26,398 nt of DNA from a virus (lineage: Duplodnaviria > Heunggongvirae > Uroviricota > Caudoviricetes): the IMG/VR virus record IMGVR_UViG_2534681993_000012. One strand, written 5' to 3'. The position numbers were made by a program, and so were the translations under genes. Below are positions 1,167 to 24,406 of the stretch, piece by piece; the stretch's first letter is position 1, and each line of letters begins with the position of its first letter. Below the pieces are notes generated by a model. That model was not told where the DNA came from, made no database searches, and was given only the letters and a program-made list of their open reading frames with translations.

Positions 1167-2632
1167 CAGATACAGCGTTATCTCCTGAAGAGCAGTTGAT
1201 CGAGGATATTGCAGGGTTCACTCACGATCCGCTTGGCTATGCCCTCTATGCGTTCCCGTGGGGGGAAGAGGGGACTGAACTGGCACATGCCACCGGCCCA
1301 CGTCAGTGGCAAGCCGATGCGTTCCGAGAGATACGTGATCACCTGCAGAATCCAGAGACGCGCTATCAGCCGCTTATGCTGGCACGCGCTTCGGGGCACG
1401 GTATTGGTAAATCAGCATTCATCTCAATGCTGATCAACTGGGGCATGTCCACTTGCGAGGATTGTAAGGTCGTGGTGACCGCCAACACCGACAACCAGCT
1501 ACGAACGAAGACCTGGCCGGAAATTATCAAGTGGTCGAACCTTGCTATCACGAAAGACTGGTTTACCTGTACCGCTACCGCGATGTACAGCAATGACCCT
1601 GGGCACGACAAGCGGTGGCGGGCTGACGCAATACCCTGGTCTGAGCACAACACTGAGGCATTCGCCGGACTACACAACGAGCGCAAACGCATCATCGTGG
1701 TATTCGATGAAGCGTCGAACATTGCGGATCTGGTGTGGGAAGTTGCTGAGGGTGCGCTTACGGACGAAGACACTGAGATTATCTGGGTGGCGTTCGGAAA
1801 CCCTACACGTAATACCGGGCGTTTTCGCGAATGTTTCCGCAAATACAAACACCGCTGGAAAACTGCGCAGATTGACAGCCGGACGGTGGAAGGTACTAAC
1901 AAACAGCAGTTGCAGAAATGGGTTGATGACTACGGGGAAGACAGCGACTTCGTTAAAATCCGTGTGCGCGGCATATTCCCTGATGCATCTGAATTGCAGT
2001 TTATCCCTACCGGTCTTACTGATGAGGCAATGAAACGGGTGGTAACCGCTGCGCAGGTGGCACATGCTCCGGTGATAATCGGTGTTGACCCGGCATATTC
2101 AGGCGTTGATGACGCGGTGATATACCTGCGGCAGGGGTTGCATAGTAAGGTGCTATGGACTGGCAACAAGACCACTGACGATCTGATTATGGCGAAGCGT
2201 ATCGCTGACTTTGAAGACCAGTACCAGGCTGACGCAGTGTTCATCGACTTCGGTTACGGAACTGGTCTGAAGTCAATCGGTGACGGCTGGGGTCGTACAT
2301 GGCAACTTGTTCCGTTCGGTGGCGCGTCTACTGACCCGCAGATGCTCAACAAGCGTGGGGAGATGTTCAACTCATGTAAGACATGGCTGAGGCTGGGCGG
2401 GATGCTGGATGACCAGGAAACAGCGGACGATCTGTCTGCGGCAGAGTACAAAGTTCGCGTGGACGGTAAAATCGTTATCGAACCGAAGGAAGATATCAAA
2501 GAACGACTTGGGCGTTCACCTGGTAAAGGCGATGCGCTACTGCTGACGTTTGCGTTCCCGGTAGCCAAGAAAACTAATGACCCACGGCAGCAGCAGGGCA
2601 GGGCTATAACAGACTATGACCCATTTGAATGA
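1163..2632 (+). CDS. terminase large subunit (ATPase plus nuclease)
   Basis: 489 aa; Walker A-like ARASGHGIGKS; C-terminal acidic motifs (VIIGVDPAYSGVDDAVIY) consistent with an RNase H-like nuclease domain; position after the small subunit. Confidence 0.9.
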   Translation: MTDTALSPEEQLIEDIAGFTHDPLGYALYAFPWGEEGTELAHATGPRQWQADAFREIRDHLQNPETRYQPLMLARASGHGIGKSAFISMLINWGMSTCEDCKVVVTANTDNQLRTKTWPEIIKWSNLAITKDWFTCTATAMYSNDPGHDKRWRADAIPWSEHNTEAFAGLHNERKRIIVVFDEASNIADLVWEVAEGALTDEDTEIIWVAFGNPTRNTGRFRECFRKYKHRWKTAQIDSRTVEGTNKQQLQKWVDDYGEDSDFVKIRVRGIFPDASELQFIPTGLTDEAMKRVVTAAQVAHAPVIIGVDPAYSGVDDAVIYLRQGLHSKVLWTGNKTTDDLIMAKRIADFEDQYQADAVFIDFGYGTGLKSIGDGWGRTWQLVPFGGASTDPQMLNKRGEMFNSCKTWLRLGGMLDDQETADDLSAAEYKVRVDGKIVIEPKEDIKERLGRSPGKGDALLLTFAFPVAKKTNDPRQQQGRAITDYDPFE

Positions 2633-2635
2633 TTT

Positions 2636-3460
2636 TTACTTTTGTGTTTTTGATTTTCTTTGATAGGTGGAATTTAAATCACCATTTATATTTACTAGAG
2701 GATTATTCAATAATGTACTGATTTCTGGATTGTTAATTCCAGTAACGCCAAATTTCTTTACGGACTCATTAAGGTCTTGTAATGATTTTAGACCTACAAA
2801 CCCATTAGCAATTGTATTATTTGTTGCCAAAGGAATGTTTTCCTTATAGGACTCATATTCGTTTTTTAAATTTTTGTGAGCTTTTTCTAGATTTTCTAGT
2901 TTAGATGTTGTTTCATCAATAACCTTAGATAATTCTAAAATACGAGCTTGTGCTGCGCGCAGTTCTGTCTCCCTCTCTTTCAATTCAGATGTGAGTTGTC
3001 CCATTCTGTCTTTTGAAAGAATTATTTCCTCTTTCATGTCTTGAATGTTTTTTTCAGCGCCTGTTTTTACTTTTTCGTAAGTAATGTCTTTTTTAGCCAG
3101 CAATCTCTGTAGCCGTGTTTCACGTTGTATTTTTCTTGCCTTCCGGTGGTTTTCGATTGAGTCATTATTATCAAGAGGTTTTGCTTGCCATACGTTAATG
3201 ATATTGTTTACCCATGGTAATAGGCAGCAGATAGTAATTACAGATAAGCATGGATAAAACATAACAGTTTTCCATGTGCTGTTATCTGAGATGTATGAAA
3301 TTTTATCTATTATATTTGATTTGCTAAAAAACAGATAAAGAAGTGATTTCCAGTTGAAGGCGCACCAGGACATAACAAAAGCACCAAGCACAGGGTTTTT
3401 GGCTCTATGCACGGCAGTGTTTGCAGTAGATAAAAACAGCTCTTTGAACGATTCAAACAT
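2636..3460 (-). CDS. accessory (moron) membrane protein: two predicted N-terminal TM helices, long coiled-coil, C-terminal globular domain; function unknown (candidate superinfection-exclusion or abortive-infection protein)
   Basis: ORF track 2636..3556; preferred start ATG at 3460 (MFESFKELF...) with AAGGT Shine-Dalgarno, downstream of a TATAAT -10. Hydrophobic segments NPVLGAFVMSWCAFNWKSLLYLFF and VMFYPCLSVITICCLLPWVNNIINVW, then a heptad-rich KE/RL region. Visibly AT-rich relative to the flanking terminase and portal genes. Confidence 0.65.
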   Translation of the reverse strand: MFESFKELFLSTANTAVHRAKNPVLGAFVMSWCAFNWKSLLYLFFSKSNIIDKISYISDNSTWKTVMFYPCLSVITICCLLPWVNNIINVWQAKPLDNNDSIENHRKARKIQRETRLQRLLAKKDITYEKVKTGAEKNIQDMKEEIILSKDRMGQLTSELKERETELRAAQARILELSKVIDETTSKLENLEKAHKNLKNEYESYKENIPLATNNTIANGFVGLKSLQDLNESVKKFGVTGINNPEISTLLNNPLVNINGDLNSTYQRKSKTQK

Positions 3461-3485
3461 ACTAATTACCTTAAAGTTTTTCATG

Positions 3486-3514
3486 ATTATACCTTTAAGG
3501 TAATTTGTGGTCAT
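3486..3514 (-). promoter_or_regulatory. sigma70-like promoter with embedded operator dyad for the membrane-protein gene
   Basis: Minus strand: -35 ATGACC (3514-3509), 17-bp spacer, -10 TATAAT (3491-3486). The dyad aTACCT-TTA-AGGTAA (3489-3503) lies in the spacer and overlaps the -10. Confidence 0.5.
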
Positions 3515-3526
3515 CAGGCAAAAAAA

Positions 3527-3545
3527 TACCCGGCGAACCGGGCGA
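3527..3545 (-). terminator. intrinsic terminator (minus strand only)
   Basis: Minus strand reads CCCGG-TTCG-CCGGG then TATTTTTTT. No U-run on the + strand, so late-operon read-through is not blocked. Confidence 0.5.
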
Positions 3546-3620
3546 ACTGGAAGCAATGAGTTATGCCTTCCGTGGCTGTACTGGTTTACAGCATGAAGTC
3601 ATCGCAATGGCGTCCTGCTG

Positions 3621-3663
3621 TAAAAAGGGCGGTGATAGTCCTTCAAGGGAAACTATCACCGCC
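3621..3663 (-). terminator. intrinsic terminator downstream of the tRNA (minus strand only)
   Basis: 12-bp stem GGCGGTGATAGT/ACTATCACCGCC with 12-nt loop, followed on the minus strand by CTTTTTA. Confidence 0.55.
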
Positions 3664-3706
3664 AAGCACCTGGAACTTCTGGCATCACGGTCCTTAGGCG
3701 TGATTC

Positions 3707-3783
3707 TGGCGTGGCATGCAGGATTCGAACCTGCGACCAACCGCTTAGAAGGCGGTTGCTCTGTCCAACTGAGCTAATGCCAC
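3707..3783 (-). tRNA. tRNA-Arg (anticodon UCU, decodes AGA); phage-borne
   Basis: Minus strand folds as a 77-nt cloverleaf: acceptor GTGGCAT/ATGCCAC, D-arm GCTC...GAGC, anticodon stem ACCGC/GCGGT with loop CTTCTAA (U33-UCU-A37), T-arm GCAGG-TTCGAAT-CCTGC, discriminator G and encoded CCA. Resembles but differs from host argU as I recall it. Confidence 0.85.
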
Positions 3784-4106
3784 AACACTGAGAGCACTTA
3801 GCCTGTTAAGTGCGCCACACTTTGTCGCGGCTCCATAAATGCTCTCATCGTTGTACCCTCGTCTCTTCCGAGGCGTCACACCGAATCGCCGGGATGGTGA
3901 ATCCCCGTGCGCGGAATAAAACCGCTCGACTTGCACATTCCGGCTACCTGGTTCGTTTGCCCGAGCAAGGGAGGGTGCCCCTTAAACGTATCCAGACCGC
4001 TATCGGCGCATGTGCCATACGCCGTACTGCTCAAAATAAAAGCTCACTCCACCTGTTCAATTTAACGATAAGCCAGTCAGGTTAATAACCGGAATGAACA
4101 CTTTAC

Positions 4107-4121
4107 TTACCTGAAAGGTAA
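4107..4121. promoter_or_regulatory. operator-like dyad TTACCT-GAA-AGGTAA (perfect arms)
   Basis: Perfect 6-3-6 inverted repeat. Lies about 320 bp 5' of the tRNA on the minus strand and about 90 bp upstream of the + strand 68-aa gene; the target promoter is ambiguous. Confidence 0.55.
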
Positions 4122-4211
4122 TAATTCGTGCGTTAAATGTCAACTATCTACGATAAATAAATCATATGTGGTTAAATTGGTAATAATTTAATTGCGTACG
4201 GAGTCATTGAT

Positions 4212-4418
4212 ATGTGCATGGGTAGCTCACCGTCAGTGCCTGCAACACCAGAAGTTCAGGCAGCACCACAGGAGCAGGATGCCGCCGTTGTTGATGCCCG
4301 CGACGAAGAAACTCGTCGCCGTCGCGCTGCTGCTGGTCGTAGTTCTACGCTGCTTACCGGTTCTCAGGGCGACACATCAACCGCTAATACCAGCGGTAAA
4401 ACGCTGCTTGGTCAGTAA
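4212..4418 (+). CDS. small hypothetical protein (68 aa) preceding portal
   Basis: ATG with GGAG Shine-Dalgarno; the initiation context GGAGTCATTGA(T)ATG is nearly identical to that of the portal gene (GGAGTCATTGA(A)ATG at 4421-4435). Confidence 0.5.
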   Translation: MCMGSSPSVPATPEVQAAPQEQDAAVVDARDEETRRRRAAAGRSSTLLTGSQGDTSTANTSGKTLLGQ

Positions 4419-4432
4419 CCGGAGTCATTGAA

Positions 4433-6112
4433 ATGGCGGAAACAACTAAAGAGCGATTGAACAAACAGTTCGCACAACTTGAAAGCGAGCGTCAGTCGTT
4501 CGAGCCGCACTGGCGCGAGTTGAGTGATTACATCAACCCGCGTGGTTCCCGCTTTCTGACTTCTGAGGTCAACCGTAACGATCGACGCAATACACGCATT
4601 ATTGATTCGACCGGGACTATGGCGGCGCGCACTCTCGCCAGCGGCATGATGTCAGGCATCACAAGCCCCGCGCGTCCGTGGTTTCGCCTGGCTACGCCAG
4701 ATCCTGAAATGATGGATTATGGCCCTGTTAAGTTGTGGCTTGAGGCAGTGCAGAACCGCATGAACGATATGTTCAATAAGTCGAATCTCTATCAGTCGCT
4801 GCCGCAGTTATACGGAAGCCTCGGCACATACAGCACCGGTGCAATGGCGGTGATGGAGGATGACGAGGACATCATTCGTACAATGCCATTCCCGATAGGA
4901 AGTTACTACCTGGCTAACTCACCTCGTGGCAGTGTGGACACCTGTTTTCGCAAGTTCTCTATGACTGTTCGTCAGCTTGTTCAGGAGTTCGGGCTAAATA
5001 ACGTCAGCGAATCCGTAAAAAGCATGTGGGAAAGCGGCACCTACGAGAAGTGGATTGAAGTGATGCATTCGGTTTACCCGAACATTGACCGCGATACATC
5101 GAAGCTGGATAGCAAGAACAAGCCATTCAAATCGGTTTATTACGAGGTTGGTGGCGATAACGACAGGTTGTTGCGTGAGTCCGGATTCGATGAGTTTCCA
5201 ATTATGGCTCCGCGCTGGGAAGTTAACGGCGAAGATGTTTATGGATCATCATGCCCGGGTATGCTGGCGCTTGGACCTGTTAAGGCATTGCAGCTTCTCC
5301 AGAAGCGCAAGTCGCAGTTGATTGATAAAGCCACCAATCCGCCGATGGTTGCTCCGACTTCCCTCAAGAATCAGCGCGCCTCCCTTCTTCCTGGCGACAT
5401 CACGTATATCGATCAGATTACTGGTCAGGATGGCTTCAGGCCTGCTTATCTGGTTAACCCCAGTACAGCAGATTTGGTGGCAGACATTCAGGACACTCGT
5501 CAAATCATTAACAGCGCCTACTTTGTCGATCTGTTCATGATGTTGCAGAACATCAATACCCGCTCGATGCCTGTTGAAGCGGTGATCGAAATGAAAGAAG
5601 AAAAACTTCTGATGTTGGGGCCGGTTCTGGAGCGTCTGAACGACGAATGTCTTAATCCTCTCATTGACCGCGCTTTCTCGATGATGGTGCGTAAAAACAT
5701 GCTGCCGCCACCGCCTGACGCGATGGAAGGCATGCCCCTGAAGGTCGAATACATTTCCGTCATGGCTCAGGCGCAGAAGTCTATCGGCCTGTCCAGTCTG
5801 GCGTCCACGGTTAACTTCATTGGTCAACTTGCGCAAGCGAAACCAGAAGCTCTCGACAAACTCAACGTTGATCAGGCGATCGATGCATTCGCTGATATGT
5901 CCGGAGTGTCTCCAACCGTCATTGTTCCGCAGGAACAGGTTGAGCAGGCTCGCCAGCAACGGGCACAGCAGCAACAGCAGCAACAAATGATGGCGATGGG
6001 GATGGCGGCGGCACAGGGTGCCAAGACGCTAAGCGAAGCTAAAACTTCGGATCCGAGTGTGTTGTCAGCTATGGCGAATGCAGTTAGTGGTCAGGGTGGG
6101 CAATCACAATGA
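4433..6112 (+). CDS. portal (head-to-tail connector) protein
   Basis: 559 aa; position after terminase; C-terminal Gln/Ala/Met-rich tail (QQQQQQQMMAMGMAAAQGAK) of the kind I recall in podovirus connectors; strong Shine-Dalgarno. Confidence 0.8.
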   Translation: MAETTKERLNKQFAQLESERQSFEPHWRELSDYINPRGSRFLTSEVNRNDRRNTRIIDSTGTMAARTLASGMMSGITSPARPWFRLATPDPEMMDYGPVKLWLEAVQNRMNDMFNKSNLYQSLPQLYGSLGTYSTGAMAVMEDDEDIIRTMPFPIGSYYLANSPRGSVDTCFRKFSMTVRQLVQEFGLNNVSESVKSMWESGTYEKWIEVMHSVYPNIDRDTSKLDSKNKPFKSVYYEVGGDNDRLLRESGFDEFPIMAPRWEVNGEDVYGSSCPGMLALGPVKALQLLQKRKSQLIDKATNPPMVAPTSLKNQRASLLPGDITYIDQITGQDGFRPAYLVNPSTADLVADIQDTRQIINSAYFVDLFMMLQNINTRSMPVEAVIEMKEEKLLMLGPVLERLNDECLNPLIDRAFSMMVRKNMLPPPPDAMEGMPLKVEYISVMAQAQKSIGLSSLASTVNFIGQLAQAKPEALDKLNVDQAIDAFADMSGVSPTVIVPQEQVEQARQQRAQQQQQQQMMAMGMAAAQGAKTLSEAKTSDPSVLSAMANAVSGQGGQSQ

Positions 6113-6405
6113 CAGATTACGAAGACGATCAACTGAAAGAAGAAAACGACCGTAAGCAACGTGACATGGCACAGCGTGAAATTGATGACATTCGCTTTGT
6201 CATGAGCAGTGAACAGGGGCGTCGAGTTGTCTGGTCGGTGCTGGAGAAAGGCCGTGTGTTTTCCGCTATCTCACCGATGGACGCTATGGCAATGGCATTT
6301 AATGAGGGGCAACGCAATCTGGCGCTGGAACTGTTTCAGCGCGTTATGGCGCATTGCCCTGAACAGTATTTGAAGATGGCCAAAGAGGCCAGTGAACAGG
6401 AGTGA
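6109..6405 (+). CDS. small acidic head-assembly-associated protein (98 aa)
   Basis: ATGA overlap with the portal stop; no alternative-frame conflict. Confidence 0.55.
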   Translation: MTDYEDDQLKEENDRKQRDMAQREIDDIRFVMSSEQGRRVVWSVLEKGRVFSAISPMDAMAMAFNEGQRNLALELFQRVMAHCPEQYLKMAKEASEQE

Positions 6406-6407
6406 TC

Positions 6408-7103
6408 ATGAATTTATTTGAGTGTTTGCTGTATAGCCGTCTTTGCAATGAGCAACCAGTCGATGGTGGAGCAGCTCCGGCTGCGTCAGAACCGTCAGCG
6501 CCTGCAGGTGATAACCCTGCTCCAGTTGGTGCTCCATCACAACAGGAAGGTGATAAGCCACAACCTGTTGCTGATGGCGATAAACCTGCTGATGACAAAA
6601 AGCCTGAAAACGATAAGCAGGATGAAAAAAAGGACGGCGATAAACCAGATGGTGCGCCTGAGAAGTACGAGTTTCAGGCTGCCGAAGGCGTAGAGCTGGA
6701 TACAGAAGCATTGAAGGAATTCGAGCCGGTGGCGCGAGAACTAAACCTGACCAACGAGCAAGCGCAAAAGCTGGTTGATGCTTATCCGAAGATTCTGGCA
6801 GGTGTTCAGCAGCGCCAGGCAGAAGCCTGGCAGAAAACAACCGAGCAGTGGGCTGCGGATGTAAAAGCCGACAAAGAAATCGGTGGCGACAAGTTGATTT
6901 CTAACCTTAGCGCCGCACAGCGTGCGCTTGACCAGTTCGGGACACCTGAACTCAAAGAATATCTGAACACCACCGGGCTGGGTAATCACCCTGATCTGGT
7001 CAAAACGTTCGTGAAAATCGGAAAGGCGATGTCTGAAGATGGCATGGTCACCGGTGGTAATGAAGGCCAGCGTAGTGCGGCCGAAGTGCTCTATGGCAAA
7101 TAA
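6408..7103 (+). CDS. scaffolding protein (putative) with Pro/Ala/Asp/Lys-rich disordered N-terminal region
   Basis: ORF track 6402..7103 (GTG); ATG 6408 has better spacing to GGAG. Sits between portal and capsid; low-complexity region with GDKP repeats; helical C-terminal part. Confidence 0.6.
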   Translation: MNLFECLLYSRLCNEQPVDGGAAPAASEPSAPAGDNPAPVGAPSQQEGDKPQPVADGDKPADDKKPENDKQDEKKDGDKPDGAPEKYEFQAAEGVELDTEALKEFEPVARELNLTNEQAQKLVDAYPKILAGVQQRQAEAWQKTTEQWAADVKADKEIGGDKLISNLSAAQRALDQFGTPELKEYLNTTGLGNHPDLVKTFVKIGKAMSEDGMVTGGNEGQRSAAEVLYGK

Positions 7104-12853: not shown

Positions 12854-13428
12854 TGTGCGATCCGGTTATTGCTGGTGGCGCAATGCTCGCCATGAGTGGC
12901 ATTCAGGCATACACCCAGTACCAACAGGGAAAGTATGCCTCGAAGGTTGCAGAAGCGAACGCAGATATAGCCACTGCTCAGGCAAATGATGCAATAAACA
13001 GAGGTAACGCTGAAGCTGAGCAACGGCGCAGAGAGACCCGACAGCGGCTTGGTACACAAGCGGCGACAATGGGGGCGACCGGCGCCGATTTATCTACCGG
13101 TAACGCGCTGGATATATTTGGCGACACTGCCCAGTTTGGCGCTCTTGATTCGCTGACGACGGTGAATAACGCGCAACGCGAGGCTTACGGTTATCAGGTT
13201 CAGGCTGCCAACTATAAAGCAGAAGCCAGTTCAGCCCGTAAACAGGGGAATTTGGGAGCAGCAACAACATTGCTCACTGCGCCTCTGAAGGCATACGGTG
13301 CGTACCAGATGTTTGGTGGGACGTGGAGTCCGTTCTCTAAAGGAAGTACATCTAGTGGTGGGACGCCAATGTTATCTAACTCAGGTTTTATGAATTCTGA
13401 CTCCCGATTCAAAATAGGAGGTTACTGA
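12853..13428 (+). CDS. internal virion or ejection protein (191 aa; Ala/Gln/Gly-rich)
   Basis: TAATG coupling; composition like small ejection or core proteins. Confidence 0.65.
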   Translation: MCDPVIAGGAMLAMSGIQAYTQYQQGKYASKVAEANADIATAQANDAINRGNAEAEQRRRETRQRLGTQAATMGATGADLSTGNALDIFGDTAQFGALDSLTTVNNAQREAYGYQVQAANYKAEASSARKQGNLGAATTLLTAPLKAYGAYQMFGGTWSPFSKGSTSSGGTPMLSNSGFMNSDSRFKIGGY

Positions 13429-16175
13429 TGCCAGTTGTTCCTACTACATCCGGACGCCAGGTGCAAAGTCGTGGTGTGCAAACCGGTGGTTTTCAGACCT
13501 TCGATGTTCCTCAAGCAGGTCAGGTGCTGGCGAATGTCGCAGATCAGTATGCGGTGGCATATGGTGAAGCCAGGCAGAAAGCGAATGTTGCTATGGCCCA
13601 GGAGGCGTTACTGCAATTTAACCAATTTGCAGATGACCAGATTAACAACCCTGAAAGTGGGCTGATTTCTAAACAGGGTAAAAACGCTCTTGGTCAGAGT
13701 GACGCTGTTATGAAAAATATGCAGGAAAGGGCTCAGGCATTATTAGGCTCAATTCCTGAAAGTGAGGAAAGGAATAAATTATCCTTTCAACTCCAGCAGT
13801 CTATGCAGTCTTATTACAATCAGGCACGTCGATATGAAGTTGGGCAGTTTCAGCAATTCCAAGATCAAACGTATTTGTCAGGAAATGCATTGGCTGTCAC
13901 TCAGTCTGCGGGGCTATATAGCGATAACCAAGCATTTGTCGATTTAGCCAAGCAGCGATTTGAATCTATTGATCAATACGCTGATGCGCATGGGCTTCCT
14001 GATGAGTGGCGTGTTCAGCAGAAAACTCAGCTCAAGGAACAAATGGGGCAGCAAGCATGGATAGGAAATATCGCTCAAAAATACAACGAGTTTCTTCAGG
14101 TTAATGGAGAGCCAGGTGATCTTGATGGTGTGAGTCGTGCAATATCACATGGTAATTCATTGGATGCTCGTGGTTTACGTAATAATAATCCTGGTAATAT
14201 TGAAGCGAGCAAATCTAACCCGTGGGAAGGTCAGATCGGTAGCGATGGACGTTTTGCAACGTTTGCTACCCCTGAGCATGGAATCCGCGCGTTGGGTAAA
14301 AATATGTTGTCTTACCAGCGTCAAGGCTATGACACCGTTAGCGAGATTGTTAATCGCTATGCTCCGGCTAGTGATGGTAATAATACTGATGCTTATATTA
14401 GGGCATTGTGTGGTGAGCTTGGTGTTGGGGAGAATGATCAGCTTGATATCTCTAACCCAAAGACACTAGCTGCTTTATGTGCTGGGATTATTAAACACGA
14501 AAATGGCAGTATGCCTTATAGCACCGAACAGCTTGAAACTGGTATCTCGGCAGCCCTTGGTCTAACTAACCTTGATTCACCTAAGCGTTATACGGGCAAT
14601 GCGGCATTTGATGCTATGAGCCCTCAAATGCAAATACAGGCATTGAGGCAGGCTAATGAGCTGAGAAATCAGTACCGCCAGCAGTATGCGGACCAGCTTA
14701 GCACCGTAGTTAAAGATGCATATTCAGCCCTTGATGAAGGATTGAAACCTGAGAAGTTACCTTCTGAGGACGATTTTATCCGGGCCAATGGTCCGCGCAT
14801 TGGCGCTATGAAGTGGAAGGATATGCAGGCGCAGATACAATATGGAGGTGTCATTGGTGCCGCTAAAGACCTCACTCCAGAAGGACGACAAGACATTCTT
14901 GAACGTTTACGTCCACAGGATCCAAACGCTCCTGGATTTGCAGCTAACCAGCAACGCTGGGAGAAAATGCAGGCCAAATTTAAAGAGATGGATAGGGAGT
15001 GGGAGATTCAGCAGGGAAGAAACAGGTTCGTGTCTTCAATGCAAAATAACTTCCCGCTGGACCCGAACGACAAAAACAATCAGGCAGCGGTAGACCGTTA
15101 TTTCGCGCAGGATATCGCGCCTTCGTTTTCCATATCTGATCCGCAGAGCATCAATACACTGGTCACCGTCACAACTAAAAGCGGCATGATACCAACTCAG
15201 GTTAAAACAATGCTTAACAGTGGAGCAACATCAAGAGATCCTGCGCTGGTTGTCCCGATGGCAAAATTCTACGGTCAGTTATTCGATAATAATCCGGCGG
15301 CAGCGGCAACACTTGATAAAAGTACGATGGCATTTTACGGCAAGGTTTACGATTATTCCCGCGCTGGCGTGCCGGAGGATAAGGCTGTTGATATGGCTTA
15401 CAGCCAGGTGTTCCAACAGGATGACCGAATGAAACAGATGCTTTCCACTGCCATGCGAGACAAAAAATATGTCGCGGCGAGGGCAACTGCTGCACAAAAT
15501 AACGCCAGCAGTCTGACTTCCTTTGGTTCGTGGTCTCCGGATATTACCGATCCAGGAAAATCAAATGCGGCCTATCAGCGAGATTACCAGACAATTTACG
15601 ATGCTAACTTTGTACAGACAGGTGGCGATGCAGAACAGGCTGAGAAAATGACCAATGCCATGATCAGAACCACCTGGGGAGTTTCTACGGTTAATGGCAA
15701 AGCAGAGGTTATGAAGTATGCACCTGAGGCATTGTACGGAGTAAATAATGGTGCTGGTAACTGGATACAGGGGCAGTGGGAGCAGGAAAAACGCGAGCTT
15801 AAATCAAAATCCTTTGGCGGTCCTCGCAGTGATACGGACTTAATACTTGTTTCTGATGGCCTTACGGCAAGGGATAGGAGTTATGCTGTTATGGTTTTAC
15901 AGCCTGACGCAAACGGAGCGATAGAACCGAGAAATTATATTGGAGAAAATGGTCTCCCTGTTCGTTTCAAGCCGGATCAGCTGACATCTCCAATGTACAG
16001 GCAAACCATTCAGTTCCAGCAACAGCGTGTTGATGAGGCTAGAGTGCGGAGAGAAGGCAATCCGCTGCTGCAGTTCAGCAATAAAGATGGATATACTCCT
16101 CCAGATCTGACCAAACCATTCGGTTATGGTTCAGCCAATTACCTTCCGAGCAATATATACGCAGGGGGCAAATAA
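13428..16175 (+). CDS. large internal core or ejection protein (915 aa) with an embedded AT-richer domain bearing an RNNNPGNI motif (possible cell-wall-acting domain)
   Basis: TGATG coupling; long Q-rich helical regions; motif GLRNNNPGNIEASKSNPWEGQIGSDGRFATFATPEHG at about 14160-14290. Confidence 0.8.
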   Translation: MPVVPTTSGRQVQSRGVQTGGFQTFDVPQAGQVLANVADQYAVAYGEARQKANVAMAQEALLQFNQFADDQINNPESGLISKQGKNALGQSDAVMKNMQERAQALLGSIPESEERNKLSFQLQQSMQSYYNQARRYEVGQFQQFQDQTYLSGNALAVTQSAGLYSDNQAFVDLAKQRFESIDQYADAHGLPDEWRVQQKTQLKEQMGQQAWIGNIAQKYNEFLQVNGEPGDLDGVSRAISHGNSLDARGLRNNNPGNIEASKSNPWEGQIGSDGRFATFATPEHGIRALGKNMLSYQRQGYDTVSEIVNRYAPASDGNNTDAYIRALCGELGVGENDQLDISNPKTLAALCAGIIKHENGSMPYSTEQLETGISAALGLTNLDSPKRYTGNAAFDAMSPQMQIQALRQANELRNQYRQQYADQLSTVVKDAYSALDEGLKPEKLPSEDDFIRANGPRIGAMKWKDMQAQIQYGGVIGAAKDLTPEGRQDILERLRPQDPNAPGFAANQQRWEKMQAKFKEMDREWEIQQGRNRFVSSMQNNFPLDPNDKNNQAAVDRYFAQDIAPSFSISDPQSINTLVTVTTKSGMIPTQVKTMLNSGATSRDPALVVPMAKFYGQLFDNNPAAAATLDKSTMAFYGKVYDYSRAGVPEDKAVDMAYSQVFQQDDRMKQMLSTAMRDKKYVAARATAAQNNASSLTSFGSWSPDITDPGKSNAAYQRDYQTIYDANFVQTGGDAEQAEKMTNAMIRTTWGVSTVNGKAEVMKYAPEALYGVNNGAGNWIQGQWEQEKRELKSKSFGGPRSDTDLILVSDGLTARDRSYAVMVLQPDANGAIEPRNYIGENGLPVRFKPDQLTSPMYRQTIQFQQQRVDEARVRREGNPLLQFSNKDGYTPPDLTKPFGYGSANYLPSNIYAGGK

Positions 16176-19100
16176 TGCCGATATATGAACAGGATCCTAA
16201 AGAGTTGCTTGGCGAGGATATTCAGCAAATAGCAGCACCTGATGACAGTAATTTCTATATGGAAACACCTTCTTTGCTTTCTGCTGTGAACCCATTTACC
16301 AGTGATCAACGCGTTCAAAGGTCTAGACAAGCAGCATTTCGTATAGATAACACGCTGGGTAGCTTTATTGCCAGTGCTCCTTTCAGTCAGTTTGACAGGG
16401 TTGAAGGATATAACCCATTTGATAACGATGCAGCAGATATTAAAGGCTATGAAGATTTTGCAGATTCGTTTATCAACTCCGGTTCGCATGAAGAAACAAT
16501 GGCAATTAAACATCGAATCGATAAGCAAAGAACAGATAGAGAATATCTATCTGAAATGGGTGGTGCTGGTACTATTTCAAGCTTAGCAATGGGAATGATA
16601 GACCCGGTTAATGTGGCTGCAATGTTCATCCCTGTAGGGGCGGTAGCGCGTGGAGGAAGTATTGCTGAGACGGCAGGGCGTTTTGCCCTGGCGAATGCTG
16701 CTGGTGGGGGAGTATCAGAAGCCGCATTACAGGCCACTCAGGAAGCTCGCTCACCGATGGAGAGCGTATCGAACGTTGTTGTTGATGCTCTCGTTGGTGG
16801 GATCCTTGGTGCTGGTGCACAGCTACTTGCTGGACCTAGCGCGCGCGAGGCAGTGGTTAACTCAGTAGGTAATCATTTGCGAGGTATGGATTCTCCTCAA
16901 AGCATTGGTGCAGCTCAGGTTTTCAATACCACACTCGATCAGGAACAGCTCGCTGGACTTGGACTTGCTAACAAAACGTTGAGTGTCACTCCTGCTGGCC
17001 GCTTGGCTCAATCACCATCTCTTGTCTCCCGTCAGATTAACCAGCAGCTTGCCGAAAATAACTATTTCTTCGCCAAAAATGATGAGGGGTTGGCTACGTT
17101 TACGGCAGTCGAGACTAAGATTAAGCAATACGACGCCATGCTTTATAAGCAGATGGAAGCCACTCGTGATGCTTACCAGCAGTACAGCAAATCTGTTAGC
17201 GCCCGCGGCGTGAAGAGGATGAACTTTATTGATTTCAATGAAGCTGTTGGCATGGCTATGCGCCGTGGTGATCAGAGTGATATTCCTGAGGTTTCACAAG
17301 CAGCTGCCAGAATCCGCCCCATTTTCGAGACCACAAAAGCCCGTATGCAGGAACTGGGGATCCTTCCTGAGGATATCGATGTCGTGACGGCGAAAAGTTA
17401 TCTTCCCCGCATTTATAAGTTCGATAAGATACTTTCCGACCGCACTGAATTCAGAGGGCGAATTGCCAACTGGATACAAGGGATTAGTGCCAAAGGTGCT
17501 GACAAAGCAGGTCAGCGAATTGAAAGGATAAATTCATTGCTAAAAACTGCAGAGGAATCGGCACCGCGCGCTGATGCTCTCGCTAGTGAAATCGCTGAAG
17601 CGGAGAAATGGTCTGGTAAAAAAATTCTACTCATGGAAGAACTGGATAAACGAAATAAGCTTATATCTCAGGAGACTGACACACAGGCGCGTCTTACAAG
17701 AATAGAAAAAGAGTTGGCCGAGACTTCATCAGAAAAACTTCAGGCAAGAATGATGAAAGAAAGCTCTGACCTTAAAACACGCCTTGATGATATAGCGCAG
17801 GCAAAGAGTGAGCTTCCTGTCTATCAGCGCCATATGGAGTTGCTGGATAATCCACGGAAATATCGTTCTGAGCTTCGCCGACTGCAAAAACGGGCAAATT
17901 CAACCACAAGGCTGAATGCAAGCCGCGAACGAGCACTGAAGCAGATGGAGCCTCTATCCCGAGAGGAAGCAGAGGACGCTGCTGACGAGATCGTGAATAA
18001 AATAATAGGCGCACCTTCCGGGCTTGTACCAGCCGATATTATCCCAGAGAGACTCGTTGGTCGGGCTGGTTTCACTAAAAGCAGAACGCTGCTTATTCCT
18101 GATGAGCGTATAGAAGATTTTCTTGAATCAGATGTTAACTACATCATGGAAAGTTATCTCCGGCAGGTGGCACCAGAAATTGAGCTGACTGCGCAGTTTG
18201 GCCGTAAAGATATGGGGGAGCAAATCCGTCAGGTTAGTGAGGAATATACCCGGCTAATAAAAGAGGCTAAAACACCTAAACGACGTGCAGTTCTTGAGAA
18301 GCAACGGGAGGCTGATATTAGGGATATTACGGCTATGCGTGATCGACTGCTTGGTACTTACGGTGCACCTCAAGATCCACGCAGTTTCTTTGTTCGTGCC
18401 GGGCGAGTTGCTAGGAATATTAACTTCCTCCGTTTGCTTGGTGGAATGACTGTCTCCGCTGCAACTGATCTGATGCGACCGATGATGCAGCATGGCCTGA
18501 GAAAATCTCTCGGACCAATGGTAAGCATGCTTAAAAATATGGACTCAGTGAAAATTGCAACCAGGGATTTGCGAGAAATGGCCGTTGGGCTTGATTATGT
18601 CCTGTCTACGCGTACAAAGGCTATAGCGGATCTTACTGACCCCTATAGCCGGAGAAGCGCCGCTGAGCGAGGTCTGAACTGGATGACGCAGAAATTCGGT
18701 AACTGGACGCTGATGAATCAGTGGAACAGCGCACTTAAATCATGGTCCGGGATGATAGTGCAGTCGAGGATACTTGACGCGGCTCGCCAAGTTTCTGCTG
18801 GTGGCACGCTCTCCAAAAGTGAAATGCGGAAGATGGCACAGGTCGGCATCAATGAAGATGTTCTGCGCCGAATCGGGGAGCAATTCGGGAAGCACGGAGA
18901 GGATATGGACGGGCTGTTAACCGGGCATAGTCATCTGTGGGATGACCGTTTCGCTAGAGAGATTTTCCAGTCTGCAGTGCTGAAAGATGTAGACTCAGTG
19001 ATTGTAACGCCTGGCGTAGGTGATACACCGCTGTTTTTTAGTAAAGAAGGCTGGAAGATGATCACGCAGTTCAAAACGTTTATCTTCGCACAGCATAACA

Positions 19101-19564
19101 GGGTGCTAGTATCTGGTATCCAGCAGGGCGATGCTGCATTCTATCTTGGTGCGCTTGGCACGATTGCGCTTGGCTCAATGGTCTATATGATGAAACAGAA
19201 GTTAAGCGGTCGCGATATCGACTACAGCTGGAATAACCTTGTGAAAGAGGGGATCGACCGGGGCGGAATGCTTGGCTGGCTCTCTGAGCCGCTGAATACC
19301 GTTGAGAACATAAGCGGCGGTAGGTTTGGTCTTGGCGCGATGTTTGGTGCGCCTCCGGTATCAAGGTTTCAGAGTCGTAATGCTATTGGTGCTTTACTTG
19401 GTCCTACCTTTGATCTTGGCGGTGATGCCGCGACGGTTGCGAATGGTGTACTTAACGGAGAATTTGACAGCCAGCAAACCCACGCGGTCCGTAAAATGCT
19501 ACCTTTTCAGAACCTGTGGGCGATATCACCGTTACTAAATAAAGTTGAAGAGCAGATGAAATAG
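16175..19564 (+). CDS. largest internal core or ejection protein (1129 aa; coiled-coil-rich)
   Basis: TAATG coupling; long charged heptad regions (KLQARMMKESSDLKTRLDDIAQAK...); last gene of the coupled operon, stop TAG 19562-19564. Confidence 0.8.
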   Translation: MPIYEQDPKELLGEDIQQIAAPDDSNFYMETPSLLSAVNPFTSDQRVQRSRQAAFRIDNTLGSFIASAPFSQFDRVEGYNPFDNDAADIKGYEDFADSFINSGSHEETMAIKHRIDKQRTDREYLSEMGGAGTISSLAMGMIDPVNVAAMFIPVGAVARGGSIAETAGRFALANAAGGGVSEAALQATQEARSPMESVSNVVVDALVGGILGAGAQLLAGPSAREAVVNSVGNHLRGMDSPQSIGAAQVFNTTLDQEQLAGLGLANKTLSVTPAGRLAQSPSLVSRQINQQLAENNYFFAKNDEGLATFTAVETKIKQYDAMLYKQMEATRDAYQQYSKSVSARGVKRMNFIDFNEAVGMAMRRGDQSDIPEVSQAAARIRPIFETTKARMQELGILPEDIDVVTAKSYLPRIYKFDKILSDRTEFRGRIANWIQGISAKGADKAGQRIERINSLLKTAEESAPRADALASEIAEAEKWSGKKILLMEELDKRNKLISQETDTQARLTRIEKELAETSSEKLQARMMKESSDLKTRLDDIAQAKSELPVYQRHMELLDNPRKYRSELRRLQKRANSTTRLNASRERALKQMEPLSREEAEDAADEIVNKIIGAPSGLVPADIIPERLVGRAGFTKSRTLLIPDERIEDFLESDVNYIMESYLRQVAPEIELTAQFGRKDMGEQIRQVSEEYTRLIKEAKTPKRRAVLEKQREADIRDITAMRDRLLGTYGAPQDPRSFFVRAGRVARNINFLRLLGGMTVSAATDLMRPMMQHGLRKSLGPMVSMLKNMDSVKIATRDLREMAVGLDYVLSTRTKAIADLTDPYSRRSAAERGLNWMTQKFGNWTLMNQWNSALKSWSGMIVQSRILDAARQVSAGGTLSKSEMRKMAQVGINEDVLRRIGEQFGKHGEDMDGLLTGHSHLWDDRFAREIFQSAVLKDVDSVIVTPGVGDTPLFFSKEGWKMITQFKTFIFAQHNRVLVSGIQQGDAAFYLGALGTIALGSMVYMMKQKLSGRDIDYSWNNLVKEGIDRGGMLGWLSEPLNTVENISGGRFGLGAMFGAPPVSRFQSRNAIGALLGPTFDLGGDAATVANGVLNGEFDSQQTHAVRKMLPFQNLWAISPLLNKVEEQMK

Positions 19565-22950: not shown

Positions 22951-22965
22951 TTACCTTTAAGGTAA
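22951..22965. promoter_or_regulatory. operator-like dyad TTACCT-TTA-AGGTAA (perfect arms) upstream of the 108/170 operon
   Basis: Perfect 6-3-6 inverted repeat in the 5' region of the minus-strand operon. Confidence 0.6.
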
Positions 22966-23770: not shown

Positions 23771-23801
23771 TCACCACCGCAACGCCAATTACTGGTGGTG
23801 A
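23771..23801 (-). promoter_or_regulatory. 5'-leader inverted repeat of the antirepressor gene (TCACCACC / GGTGGTGA, 15-nt loop) with a third ACCACC copy abutting the start codon
   Basis: Arms at 23771-23778 and 23794-23801; a GGTGGT copy at 23743-23748 lies directly beside the start codon. Alternative pairings could expose or occlude the ribosome-binding site. Confidence 0.35.
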
Positions 23802-23896
23802 ACTGGACAAGGTTGGCGTACCGGCCTAAGTGGTACCGGCGTCCTTTCGGACCCCTGCCCAGCCCACCATAATTCGGATATGGCTGTGCTTAACGC

Positions 23897-23921
23897 ATAA
23901 AAAAACCACGTCTGGCGTGGT
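23897..23921 (-). terminator. intrinsic terminator (minus strand) between the short paralogue and the antirepressor
   Basis: Minus strand reads ACCACG-CCAGA-CGTGGT then TTTTTTTA. Confidence 0.5.
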
Positions 23922-23954
23922 ATGCGCCACTTAGTAACTCGGGACGCCAATCCC

Positions 23955-23976
23955 GGCACTGGATTTTGCCAGTGCC
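23955..23976. other. stable GC-rich hairpin (8-bp stem GGCACTGG/CCAGTGCC, 6-nt loop), no U-tract
   Basis: Perfect inverted repeat within the structured intergenic region. Confidence 0.35.
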
Positions 23977-23990
23977 CGATTACTATGGCA

Positions 23991-24044
23991 CAAGAGGAGT
24001 GCGATGTAAATTTACCGCAAAGGTAAATATAAGCACTCCTCTTG
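23991..24044. promoter_or_regulatory. nested palindrome: 12-bp arms CAAGAGGAGTGC/GCACTCCTCTTG enclosing a 30-nt loop that carries the dyad TTACCg-CAA-AGGTAA (24012-24026)
   Basis: Perfect 12-bp inverted repeat, 14 nt downstream of the short paralogue's stop; the inner dyad matches the motif family with one arm mismatch. Confidence 0.5.
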
Positions 24045-24391: not shown

Positions 24392-24406
24392 TCACCTGAA
24401 AGGTAA
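24392..24406. promoter_or_regulatory. operator-like dyad TcACCT-GAA-AGGTAA upstream of the LexA-controlled promoter
   Basis: 6-3-6 inverted repeat, one arm mismatch; lies in the divergent intergenic region between the short paralogue and the tailspike. Confidence 0.55.

Follow-up and report, generated by a model that had tools for sequence, protein, structure and literature searches.

Why should a prophage carry a tRNA for the arginine codon AGA on the strand opposite to its virion genes, and is that tRNA a unit in its own right? The question is raised by a 26,398 nt stretch of DNA, referred to here as the window, which is a phiV10/epsilon15-like (Uetakevirus) prophage of E. coli. The genes terS (492–1166), terL (1163–2632), gp3 (4212–4418) and portal (4433–6112) are all on the plus strand, and the tRNA lies on the minus strand between terL and gp3, with virion genes to either side. 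A first-pass annotation had proposed that the tRNA and two terminators 3′ of it form a self-contained accessory unit, which may support the expression of AT-rich accessory or late genes.

The tRNA-Arg(UCU) gene is intact

ARAGORN detected a single tRNA in the whole window, a tRNA-Arg(TCT) with the anticodon UCU, of the argU type and with an encoded CCA, at 3707–3783 on the minus strand. This sequence scored 73.3 bits against the Rfam model RF00005, above the gathering score of 29 (E = 1.6e-14), and the first-pass description of a complete tRNA for AGA, antisense to the virion genes, was confirmed. The anticodon loop, CUUCUAA, does not differ from that of E. coli argU; over the whole gene 64 of 77 positions are identical to K-12 argU, and the changes that fall in the acceptor and anticodon stems are paired. 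The identity rules of ArgRS are established, and the positions A20, C35, U36 and G/A73 were found in the phage sequence together with the 3′ CCA; the tRNA is presumably aminoacylated. Eight variants from phages of E. coli, Salmonella and Klebsiella were compared, in which every stem stays paired and differences are confined to the D-loop, the variable loop, acceptor positions compatible with G-U pairing and the discriminator position 73. As judged from its sequence the gene is intact, and it represents a conserved phage lineage of its own in three host genera.

Taken alone the tRNA is ordinary and is known from the annotation of its relatives, having been annotated previously in phiv142-3, in O157 typing phages 9 and 10 and in RefSeq prophages. 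In vB_EcoP_ZX5 the same tRNA is mentioned without comment (PMC9782041).

Such a gene could be a relic without present function, representing host DNA captured by aberrant excision or a target for attachment or recombination. Integration at tRNA genes is common, and the adjoining slot, here filled by a gene referred to as the cargo gene, is variable, with other genes found there in relatives. However, the prophage adjoins guaA, not argU, the identity with host argU is limited to the figure given above within a separate phage lineage, and all stems are intact. Furthermore, nothing has integrated 3′ of the tRNA, since the sequence there is collinear with that of tRNA-less relatives. A relic is very improbable.

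The tRNA is nested in a conserved structured RNA

The tRNA is not a stand-alone gene but lies within a longer structured RNA (the element) that is widely conserved and apparently undescribed. This pseudoknotted RNA occupies ∼4030–3784 on the minus strand, and its last four bases are the first four of the tRNA. The 5′ core (3848–4030, minus) was identified by profile match (nhmmer, 4028–3848, E = 1.4e-39) and by covariation. It consists of a hairpin P1, a long-range helix P2 around a variable hairpin, an invariant GGUAGCCGGAAUGUGCAAG motif, a variable hairpin P3, and hairpins P4 and P5 (3873–3857), and the CACC loop of P4 pairs with a downstream GGUG to form the pseudoknot. In an alignment of 26 diverse sequences, 29 pairs were paired in 97.6% of cells, and compensatory changes were found at 10 pairs, with double changes in 60 cells; these values were reached by none of 500 shuffles, and slid controls paired at 27–49%. 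The invariant G-U pairs place the core on the minus strand.

Between the core and the tRNA lies a further covarying domain, P6 (3784–3854, minus), which is composed of ACAACG-AUGA-GAGAGCAUU, a variable insert and AGUGCUCUC-AG-UGUU. Its strands covary in relatives as GAGAGC/GCUCUC, AAGAGC/GCUCUU and GAGCGCAC/GUGCGCUC. The 3′ end of P6 is a conserved GUUGUGG, of which the final GUGG constitutes nucleotides 1–4 of the tRNA, and this junction motif was kept in ∼70 unique sequences. Compensatory pairs, strand-specific G-U pairs and the lack of a conserved reading frame together characterize a structured non-coding RNA. Plus strand ORFs at 3505–3777 and 3810–4085 were rejected as coding because the region covaries as a minus strand RNA and its length variants are not multiples of three. 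These results also correct a number of CDS annotations over the structured RNA that are probably spurious.

In the window and eight relatives the element matched no Rfam 15 family, whether gathering thresholds were applied or hits up to E = 10 around it were considered, and a literature search by motif sequence found it in no paper of the library covered. It was found across the Enterobacterales in genomes of lambdoid, P1-like and uetakevirus type, and a sizeable minority of the complete genomes of E. coli carry it. Its locations are the start of the early-left operon in many N-less lambdoid prophages, the ban operon of P1 and the terL–portal interval of epsilon15-like phages. By profile search there was one copy per locus, most loci being partial genomes, with two copies in a single locus (L035); a second copy in the PR operon was looked for and rejected on the same search. 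The importance of the tRNA lies in this setting, as it marks a conserved pseudoknotted RNA outside all Rfam families.

The tRNA slot holds exchangeable modules

Among 114 unique sequences bearing the element, 23 had a tRNA within ≤420 nt downstream. In every case this was tRNA-Arg(TCT), it started at the GTGG of a conserved GTGCTCTCAGCGTTGTGG and the context was that of a uetakevirus. Many close relatives that share its hosts have no such tRNA. No empty site with joined flanks was seen in the tRNA-less relatives, in which the slot holds an unrelated stem-closed module of 70–145 nt. SPN1S, which has the tRNA, shares near-identical flanks with PAT1, L052, L076 and L132, which lack it; the same slot contains the 77 nt tRNA in SPN1S and an 87 nt GUGGUGAAUAAGG...GUACCACAACCA module in the other four. 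Since the tRNA-less relatives hold another module in the slot, the tRNA is a replacement and not an insertion. This shows that a phage tRNA can be gained through exchange of modules within an RNA and not as a gene cassette.

Given that relatives have non-tRNA modules in the slot, what it primarily provides may be structure or processing and not decoding. In its strongest form this would make the tRNA mainly a processing module, the cloverleaf recruiting RNase P and 3′ processing to set the ends of the 5′ RNA, with decoding incidental. Several of the non-tRNA modules have MFE folds that are cloverleaf-like, in which a T-like hairpin directly adjoins the 3′ strand, and a Phytobacter prophage carries at the same junction a near-canonical tRNA-like module with an 8 bp acceptor stem and a CCCA end. 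In P1 the core comes directly after tRNA-Ile, and AGA usage is uncorrelated with the presence of the tRNA (see below). The tRNA-likeness of the non-tRNA modules is, however, a hint only, because for most of them neither relaxed ARAGORN nor the Rfam tRNA model gave a tRNA call. The phage tRNA also retains all the features of a decoding tRNA (argU anticodon loop, identity positions and CCA), and only Arg(UCU), a rare-codon isoacceptor, was found in the slot, which fits selection for decoding. That decoding is incidental is rather unlikely.

The terminators belong to the host RNA

Directly 3′ of the tRNA is a conserved hairpin, AUCACG-CCUAAGGAC-CGUGAU (3684–3704, minus), which is thermodynamically weak alone (−4.3 kcal/mol); the same hairpin, after CCACAAC, is found 3′ of the non-tRNA module in tRNA-less uetakeviruses. 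Two terminators follow, both located by terminator scan and folding. T1 (UUGGCGGUGAUAG...CUAUCACCGCC then CUUUUUAC; 3618–3668, minus) has a 14 bp stem (3663–3628) preceding CUUUUUAC with its CUUUUU tract, a ΔG of −23.1 kcal/mol and a z-score of −6.7 against shuffles. T2 (GCCCGGUUCGCCGGGU then AUUUUUUU; 3518–3543, minus) has a 6 bp stem (3543–3528), in which five of the six pairs are G-C, preceding AUUUUUUU, and a ΔG of −10.6. Each has the G+C-rich hairpin and the U tract on the transcribed strand only that define an intrinsic terminator. On the plus strand the T1 and T2 hairpins are followed by AAGCACC and GAACUGG, not U tracts, and the terminator scan reported no plus strand terminators there. 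As the U tracts are on the minus strand only, T1 and T2 are unidirectional, in agreement with the first-pass annotation, and their conservation in related phages shows that neither is a chance hairpin. Weak Rfam matches of T1 and T2 to DicF (16.9 bits) and RyhB (15.2 bits) were rejected as noise.

The proposal that the terminators are the tRNA's own did not hold. T1, T2 and the spacer between them (ACAGCAGGACGCCAUUGCGAUGAC...CAUUGCUUCCAGUUC; 3544–3617, minus), which is conserved in phiV10, epsilon15, SPN1S, PAT1 and Tyrion, persist without the tRNA in PAT1, Tyrion and the loci L052, L076, L093 and L132, several of which are IMG/VR contigs. In epsilon15, which also has no tRNA, T2 is conserved, as is T1 in its 3′ half. 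T2 was kept in every uetakevirus examined, and in lambdoid phages as well as tRNA-less uetakeviruses the RNA ends in a homologous UUGGCGGU...ACCGCCCUUUUU terminator. In phiV10, epsilon15, SPN1S and PAT1 the ribosome-binding site of the next gene begins right after the T2 U tract; in phiV10 and epsilon15 this leaves no room for a promoter of its own, and the gene therefore needs read-through.

A predicted promoter overlaps an operator-like palindrome

The promoter scan found no promoter-like site on the minus strand between 3784 and 4100. The nearest candidate is ∼330 nt upstream of the tRNA, where a sigma-70 promoter of the RNA/tRNA unit was predicted at 4115–4143 (minus), with a −35 hexamer TTGACA (4143–4138), a 17 nt spacer and a −10 hexamer TACCTT (4120–4115), and from which transcription would start near 4108. 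The prediction is a weak consensus match, falling under the threshold of a simple scan because the −10 hexamer matches at only three of six positions; the same TTGACA-N17-TACCTT arrangement is found in 11 of 18 uetakevirus-type loci, epsilon15-like loci included. An operator-like palindrome, TACCTTTCAGGTA, overlaps the −10 hexamer at 4108–4120. This motif is also present at 3490–3502 and 22952–22964, with two further weaker sites, against 0.23 expected by chance. The homologous palindrome of epsilon15 is annotated as a repressor binding site, from which we infer a repressor site at 4108–4120, and all 18 uetakevirus-type loci have an operator-like palindrome upstream of the element. The promoter of the structured RNA is probably repressor-controlled in temperate enterobacterial phages.

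The cargo gene (2636–3485, minus) is AT-rich (34% GC) and encodes 282 aa with N-terminal hydrophobic segments and a coiled coil. Its product belongs to phrog_4780 (E = 1e-121), a family of no assigned function, and has no Pfam family match; PADLOC gave weak coiled-coil matches only, which were considered noise. Close homology of phiV10 with the window stops at 3520. The gene has a promoter-like site of its own, ATGACC-N17-TATAAT (3486–3514, minus; 10 of 12 consensus positions), which contains the operator palindrome at 3490–3502, and a similar operator follows T2 in the IMG/VR contig L093.

These features bear on the suggestion that the tRNA and its two terminators were inserted antisense into the virion operon as an autonomous accessory unit, or moron, with its own signals and possibly expressed in lysogens for the benefit of the AT-rich neighbour. 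The tRNA and the terminators are both real, the tRNA is absent in epsilon15, and AGA accounts for 5 of 11 Arg codons in the cargo gene. An autonomous unit is nevertheless improbable: no promoter abuts the tRNA, the 5′ end of which is joined to the conserved structured RNA; the sole promoter candidate upstream bears a phage operator; T1 and T2 are present without the tRNA; the other modules in the slot point to replacement; and the neighbouring gene has its own promoter-like site.

The reading that we favour, with somewhat better than even confidence, is that a functional argU-type tRNA-Arg(UCU) cassette sits in a swappable, stem-closed slot of a longer structured RNA between terL and gp3. On this reading an early structured RNA and the tRNA would share one transcript, from which the tRNA would be excised. 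With its −10 hexamer inside the phage operator, the promoter at 4143–4115 should be silent in the lysogen, the state in which the first-pass annotation had suggested looking for the mature tRNA, and would fire after induction or infection. The minus strand transcript would comprise a leader of ∼80 nt, the pseudoknotted 5′ core (4030–3848), the P6 domain and the tRNA, followed by the conserved hairpin, T1, the conserved spacer and T2. Cleavage by RNase P at the 5′ end of the tRNA (3784/3783) would free the 5′ structured RNA from the tRNA, and the 3′ end of the latter, with CCA already encoded, would be formed by the usual trimming. As parts of the host RNA, T1 and T2 would end the transcript or gate read-through into the cargo slot, and would let plus strand virion transcription pass.

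Codon usage and the role of the tRNA

Once freed, the tRNA would be expected to increase the decoding of AGA, and weakly of AGG, during translation of AGA/AGG-rich phage genes. In the window AGA and AGG occur at 7.65 and 6.07 per 1000 codons respectively, compared with E. coli averages of ∼2 and ∼1, and the count proposed for prophage against host gave none of either among 2551 codons of seven neighbouring host genes. The codons are concentrated in two large tail genes and the cargo gene, and the main beneficiaries would be the tail genes at 13428–19564 and the cargo gene. Codon supplementation in lytic growth is plausible, because AGA and AGG are several-fold above the levels typical of E. 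coli. However, AGA usage did not correlate with the presence of the tRNA in four complete genomes, being 6.9 (PAT1) and 4.2 (epsilon15) per 1000 without the tRNA and 5.4 (SPN1S) and 6.75 (phiV10) with it. The tRNA is dispensable, as tRNA-less uetakeviruses use AGA as much or more. Given the AGA/AGG-rich phage genes, the tRNA could help their translation, but AGA usage does not follow its presence among relatives.

Phage tRNAs that offset tRNA-targeting defences are known, and the tRNA might similarly be a spare replacing host tRNA-Arg(UCU) that has been cleaved or depleted by an anticodon nuclease, a colicin-type toxin or another such defence. Early expression under repressor control, as predicted here, would be appropriate for such a spare. 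We give it little credence, since the anticodon stem-loop shows no escape-type changes (the CUUCUAA loop is that of host argU and only stem pairs differ), nothing in the window points to a defence specific for tRNA-Arg(UCU), and many close relatives on the same hosts lack the tRNA.

Comparison with known phage tRNAs and RNAs

The tRNA resembles other rare-codon tRNAs of phages (ileZ-argN-argO of the Stx phage 933W and the tRNAs of P1, T4 and T5) and host argU/dnaY, in being an argU-type tRNA-Arg(UCU) in a temperate coliphage that over-uses AGA and AGG. It differs in that it is neither free-standing nor clustered but continues in register from a structured RNA, to whose 3′ end it is fused, and in that its place is taken by non-tRNA modules in relatives.

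GOLLD and ROOL are likewise structured non-coding RNAs of phages and prophages, large, ornate and of unassigned role, that are found beside tRNAs. GOLLD sometimes holds tRNAs inside a variable linker (PMC12286853), and the RNA described here similarly combines a conserved core with variable modules, among them a tRNA. It is, however, much smaller (∼400–500 nt including the tRNA), differs in host range, being found in phages of Enterobacterales, and always lies right after a repressor-controlled early promoter or within an early operon. Searches of the window and of eight related loci with the GOLLD and ROOL models of Rfam gave no hit, even with the cut-off relaxed to E ≤ 10 in the region of the element.

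In its location the element is similar to put of HK022. It is found in lambdoid prophages without an N-like ORF at that place, with a PL-like promoter upstream and an intrinsic terminator and early-left genes downstream; in the lambdoid locus L004 the order is TTGACA-N17-CATAAT, element, terminator, yfdP. The corresponding order in uetakeviruses is operator-promoter, element, T1 and T2, gene, which is also a put-like location. The element may act as a put-like antiterminator. It was rejected as a put homologue, since blastn found no similarity between the element and the HK022 nun-PL-putL region, and put is ∼70 nt with two stem-loops and present as a putL/putR pair, whereas the core here is ∼170 nt, pseudoknotted and present once per locus.

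A tRNA or tRNA-like fold that gives RNase P a site bounding a neighbouring non-coding RNA is also a feature of P1/P7 C4, P4 CI and MALAT1/mascRNA; here such processing is proposed for a complete, decoding-capable tRNA and not a mimic. The host structured RNA may serve put-like antitermination or be a stable non-coding RNA. It is tentatively suggested, as possible rather than probable, that the ∼170 nt core represents a new class of phage RNA, either a put-like, protein-independent processive antiterminator that would let early transcription pass T1 and T2, or a stable early RNA. RNase P, cutting at a nested tRNA or tRNA-shaped module, would define the ends of the RNA, as a phage counterpart of MALAT1/mascRNA, with tRNA-Arg as one interchangeable version. 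Were the element the missing early antiterminator of the N-less lambdoid phages, or a new stable phage RNA matured via tRNA processing, sequence that has long gone unannotated in hundreds of E. coli genomes would become directly testable.

Two further candidates were rejected. A CsrA sponge was not indicated, as GGA motifs were not enriched (11 observed, 10.5 expected), and the prophage sRNAs Pas, AgvB and AsxR are located in late regions and are unrelated to the element.

Elsewhere in the same window a C4 RNA is encoded, as identified with Rfam.

A tRNA-Arg(UCU) gene antisense to the virion genes

The region was assigned by megablast to the phiV10/epsilon15-like podoviruses, genus Uetakevirus. 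Positions 3520-4500 are 98-99% identical to phiV10, phiv142-3, O157 typing phages 9 and 10, TL-2011b and others, and the same prophage was found adjoining guaA in an E. coli chromosome. The only tRNA that ARAGORN called in the whole window is a complete tRNA-Arg (anticodon TCT; minus strand, 3707-3783), which the Rfam tRNA model scored at 73.3 bits (threshold 29; E=1.6e-14). The CCA end is gene-encoded. The flanking terS, terL, gp3 and portal genes all lie on the plus strand, and the first-pass annotation was thus correct in placing a complete tRNA antisense to the virion genes.

The phage tRNA and K-12 argU are identical at 64 of 77 positions, the differences being paired and located in the acceptor and anticodon stems. 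The anticodon loop is the same and has no escape-type changes, which argues against a spare tRNA directed at host defence, an explanation we consider improbable. All stems stay paired in eight phage variants from three host genera; that the tRNA is a relic is regarded as very improbable indeed. The phage tRNA is present at ≥95% identity in ∼500 E. coli records, was annotated before now in several relatives and by PGAP, and was noted in passing in vB_EcoP_ZX5 (PMC9782041). The RefSeq record of phiV10 has a hypothetical CDS on the opposite strand in its place, and no tRNA was found in epsilon15, PAT1 or Tyrion. The tRNA itself is real, ordinary and previously annotated; the point of interest is its setting in a widespread structured RNA, rather than the tRNA alone.

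A conserved pseudoknotted RNA upstream of the tRNA

None of the relatives has an annotated gene in the 250 nt directly 5' of the tRNA on the minus strand. This sequence matched ∼660 E. coli records at 80-90% identity, the matched stretch being unannotated, and 86 phage records. It corresponds to a conserved pseudoknotted RNA core with an invariant GGUAGCCGGAAUGUGCAAG motif (window 3784-4030, minus strand), unannotated in every record inspected. Other copies are located at 4005-4244 (minus) in a lambdoid prophage (L004), at 2501-2669 (plus) in P1 (L018) and in the further loci L008-L017 and L019-L167.

The structure was derived by hand and assessed in an alignment of 26 diverse copies of the 5' core. 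It comprises hairpin P1, long-range helix P2, hairpins P4 and P5, and a pseudoknot between the P4 loop CACC and a downstream GGUG. Pairing was retained in 97.6% of 753 cells, with compensatory double changes at 10 of 29 pairs (60 cells), values reached by none of 500 shuffles; when the 3' partners were slid by 1-3 columns, pairing was only 27-49%. The pseudoknot covaries (CACC/GGUG versus AACC/GGUU), as does a further domain, P6 (3854-3784), and the invariant G-U pairs place the RNA on the minus strand. No Rfam 15 family matched the element, either here or in eight relatives, and a literature search with the motif sequence found it in no paper of the library searched. The element is apparently a widespread and so far undescribed structured RNA of temperate enterobacterial phages.

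Three contexts were recognized, and in each the element runs in the same direction as the early genes around it, equivalent to the minus strand of the window. In uetakeviruses it lies between terL and gp3. In lambdoid prophages and phages (mEp460, cdtI, Stx2c phages and others) it lies 3' of the terminator of a cI-like repressor gene and a TTGACA-N17-CATAAT promoter, and is followed by an intrinsic terminator and yfdP/Q/R. In P1-like phage-plasmids its first 170 nt lie between a tRNA-Ile, directly 5', and ban, in the C1-controlled ban operon. An invariant 19-mer, GGTAGCCGGAATGTGCAAG, was present in at least 120 IMG/VR contigs and in representative genomes of Escherichia, Klebsiella, Citrobacter, Enterobacter, Kosakonia, Kluyvera, Phytobacter, Buttiauxella, Erwinia and others.

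P1 is a second case of the element adjoining a tRNA, here at the 5' end of the element, and a single long leader in its ban operon (L018 269-370) combines the element with three tRNAs and a dicF-like region. In the IMG/VR contig L097 an rrn/lambda boxA-like GCTCTTTAACAA directly follows the core. Hypothetical-protein CDSs, some on the opposite strand, overlie the tRNA/terminator region or the structured RNA in phiV10 (phiV10p04, L001 2672-2923, plus) and in the loci L008 (2710-2871), L014 (1943-2311) and L015 (2011-2253), and are probably spurious.

The tRNA occupies the site of an exchangeable module

On the minus strand, two intrinsic-terminator-like sites lie 3' of the tRNA. The stem of T1 measures 14 bp (3663-3628; dG -23.1 kcal/mol, z=-6.7 versus shuffles) and its tail is CUUUUUAC; T2 has a 6-bp stem (3543-3528; dG -10.6 kcal/mol) and the tail AUUUUUUU. 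On the plus strand neither hairpin is followed by a U tract, and both terminators are therefore unidirectional, as had been proposed.

Among 114 unique element-bearing sequences, 23 had a tRNA within 420 nt 3' of the motif. It was always tRNA-Arg(TCT), always in the uetakevirus context, and always began at the GTGG of a conserved GTGCTCTCAGCGTTGTGG that ends P6. In loci lacking the tRNA, GUUGUGG pairs with a downstream CCACAAC to enclose a variable module of 70-145 nt, followed by a hairpin (AUCACGCCUYAGGACCGUGAU), a UUGGCGGU...ACCGCCCUUUUU terminator (T1), a conserved spacer and T2. The four elements from this hairpin (3704-3684) to T2 recur after the tRNA of the window. Salmonella phages with near-identical flanks gave the clearest comparison: the position of the tRNA in SPN1S is taken by an 87-nt module in PAT1 and three IMG/VR contigs. 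Compared with L009 and the IMG/VR contig L052, epsilon15 (L003 2640-2740, minus) lacks the core, module slot and 5' arm of T1, apparently owing to a deletion between two UUCCCUUGAUGCU repeats, of which one lies in a loop of the core and one in the T1 loop.

As other modules fill the same slot, with the same flanks and downstream elements, the tRNA is a replacement of one module and is nested as an exchangeable part of a structured RNA. T1 and T2 are parts of this larger RNA, not of the tRNA. The first-pass annotation had described a self-contained accessory unit with its own tandem terminators; the terminators are there, but they also follow non-tRNA modules, which contradicts an autonomous unit and makes that reading improbable.

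In two Phytobacter ursingii loci (L146, L166) the GUUGUGG junction, ∼530 nt 3' of the motif, is occupied by a near-canonical tRNA-like module of 79 nt. Its acceptor stem is 8 bp long, its T arm carries GGGUUCGAAUCCC and it ends in CCCA; ARAGORN called it Ile(aat). The slot is thus open to a tRNA-shaped module other than Arg(UCU). This module, together with the cloverleaf-like minimum free energy folds of some non-tRNA modules, would suit a tRNA serving mainly as an RNase P processing module, but the other modules were unrecognized by relaxed ARAGORN and the Rfam tRNA model, and we consider this role unlikely. The GUUGU(GG) at the junction (3786-3782) can pair either with ACAAC on its 5' side, closing P6, or with CCACAAC on its 3' side, closing the module; these mutually exclusive pairings may possibly constitute a conformational switch.

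A predicted early promoter and the proposed transcript

Between the tRNA and 4100 no promoter-like site was detected. At 4143-4115 a perfect TTGACA is separated by 17 nt from TACCTT, and this -10 hexamer forms the left half of the palindrome TACCTTTCAGGTA. Its family, TACCTTnnAGGTA, occurs at 3490-3502, 4108-4120 and 22952-22964 (0.23 expected by chance), with two weaker sites (24013-24025, 24393-24405). This palindrome overlaps the predicted promoter of the RNA/tRNA unit and a promoter-like site of the minus-strand gene beyond T2 (the cargo gene), and its epsilon15 counterpart is an annotated repressor site (operator). An operator-like palindrome lies 5' of the element in 18/18 uetakevirus-type loci, 11 of which have the exact TTGACA-N17-TACCTT arrangement. 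From these sequences we infer a repressor-controlled early promoter at 4143-4115, in which case the unit is predicted to be silent in the lysogen and expressed after induction.

In the reading that we favour, and hold to be rather probable, a minus-strand transcript would begin near 4108 after induction and extend over the structured core, P6, tRNA and hairpin as far as T1, beyond which T2 would provide a second stop or a gate. RNase P cleavage at 3784/3783 would separate a 5' RNA of ∼325 nt from the tRNA, and the released tRNA would add AGA decoding for phage genes. The existence and conservation of the elements were observed; we infer every later step of this mechanism.

In phiV10, epsilon15, SPN1S and PAT1 the gene after T2 begins ∼15 nt past the U tract with a ribosome-binding site between, and this short distance means that its expression needs read-through of T1 and T2. 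The cargo gene of the window is preceded by a promoter-like site of its own, which contains a second operator. A put-like, cis-acting antiterminator role would fit the element on two features, its location between early promoters and terminators and the lack of promoters for the genes behind T2, though it is not a put homologue, the HK022 putL region is unrelated to it and a single copy per locus was found. A stable early RNA comparable to GOLLD/ROOL would fit equally well; those RNAs are tRNA-associated and tRNAs can sit in a linker (PMC12286853), and the element likewise adjoins a tRNA. A CsrA-sponge role was rejected. The exception to the single copy in profile searches was the IMG/VR contig L035, which has tandem cores at 3993-4156 and 4798-4961.

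AGA and AGG demand

The window uses AGA and AGG at 7.65 and 6.07 per 1000 codons, while neither occurs among the 2551 codons of seven host genes beside the prophage; demand for an AGA/AGG isoacceptor is therefore real. The codons are concentrated in the cargo gene and in tail genes (13428-19564). Of the 96 AGA and AGG codons counted in the genes of the window, 42 fall in the two largest tail/virion genes (13428-19564, plus strand), which would draw on the tRNA most. AGA usage per 1000 was 6.9 in PAT1 and 4.2 in epsilon15, which lack the tRNA, versus 5.4 in SPN1S and 6.75 in phiV10. The earlier suggestion that the tRNA may support AT-rich accessory or late genes holds as regards the excess of demand over the host, but since demand is equal in tRNA-less relatives the tRNA is helpful at most, not required.

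Variable cargo beyond T2

Homology to phiV10 ends at 3520, shortly beyond T2. The cargo gene (2636-3485, minus strand) is AT-rich (34% GC), belongs to phrog_4780 and encodes a protein with hydrophobic segments at the N terminus and a long coiled coil. The slot after T2 varies among uetakeviruses, holding an Sf6-gp66-like gene or other genes, and the gene beyond 3520 is variable cargo. Elsewhere in the window, Rfam matches to C4 antisense RNA (66 bits, 23791-23874, minus) and isrK (67 bits, 23899-23975, minus) together suggest a P1/P7 immI-type antirepressor control module, and the pair recurs in the lambdoid prophage locus L004 at 6280-6468.
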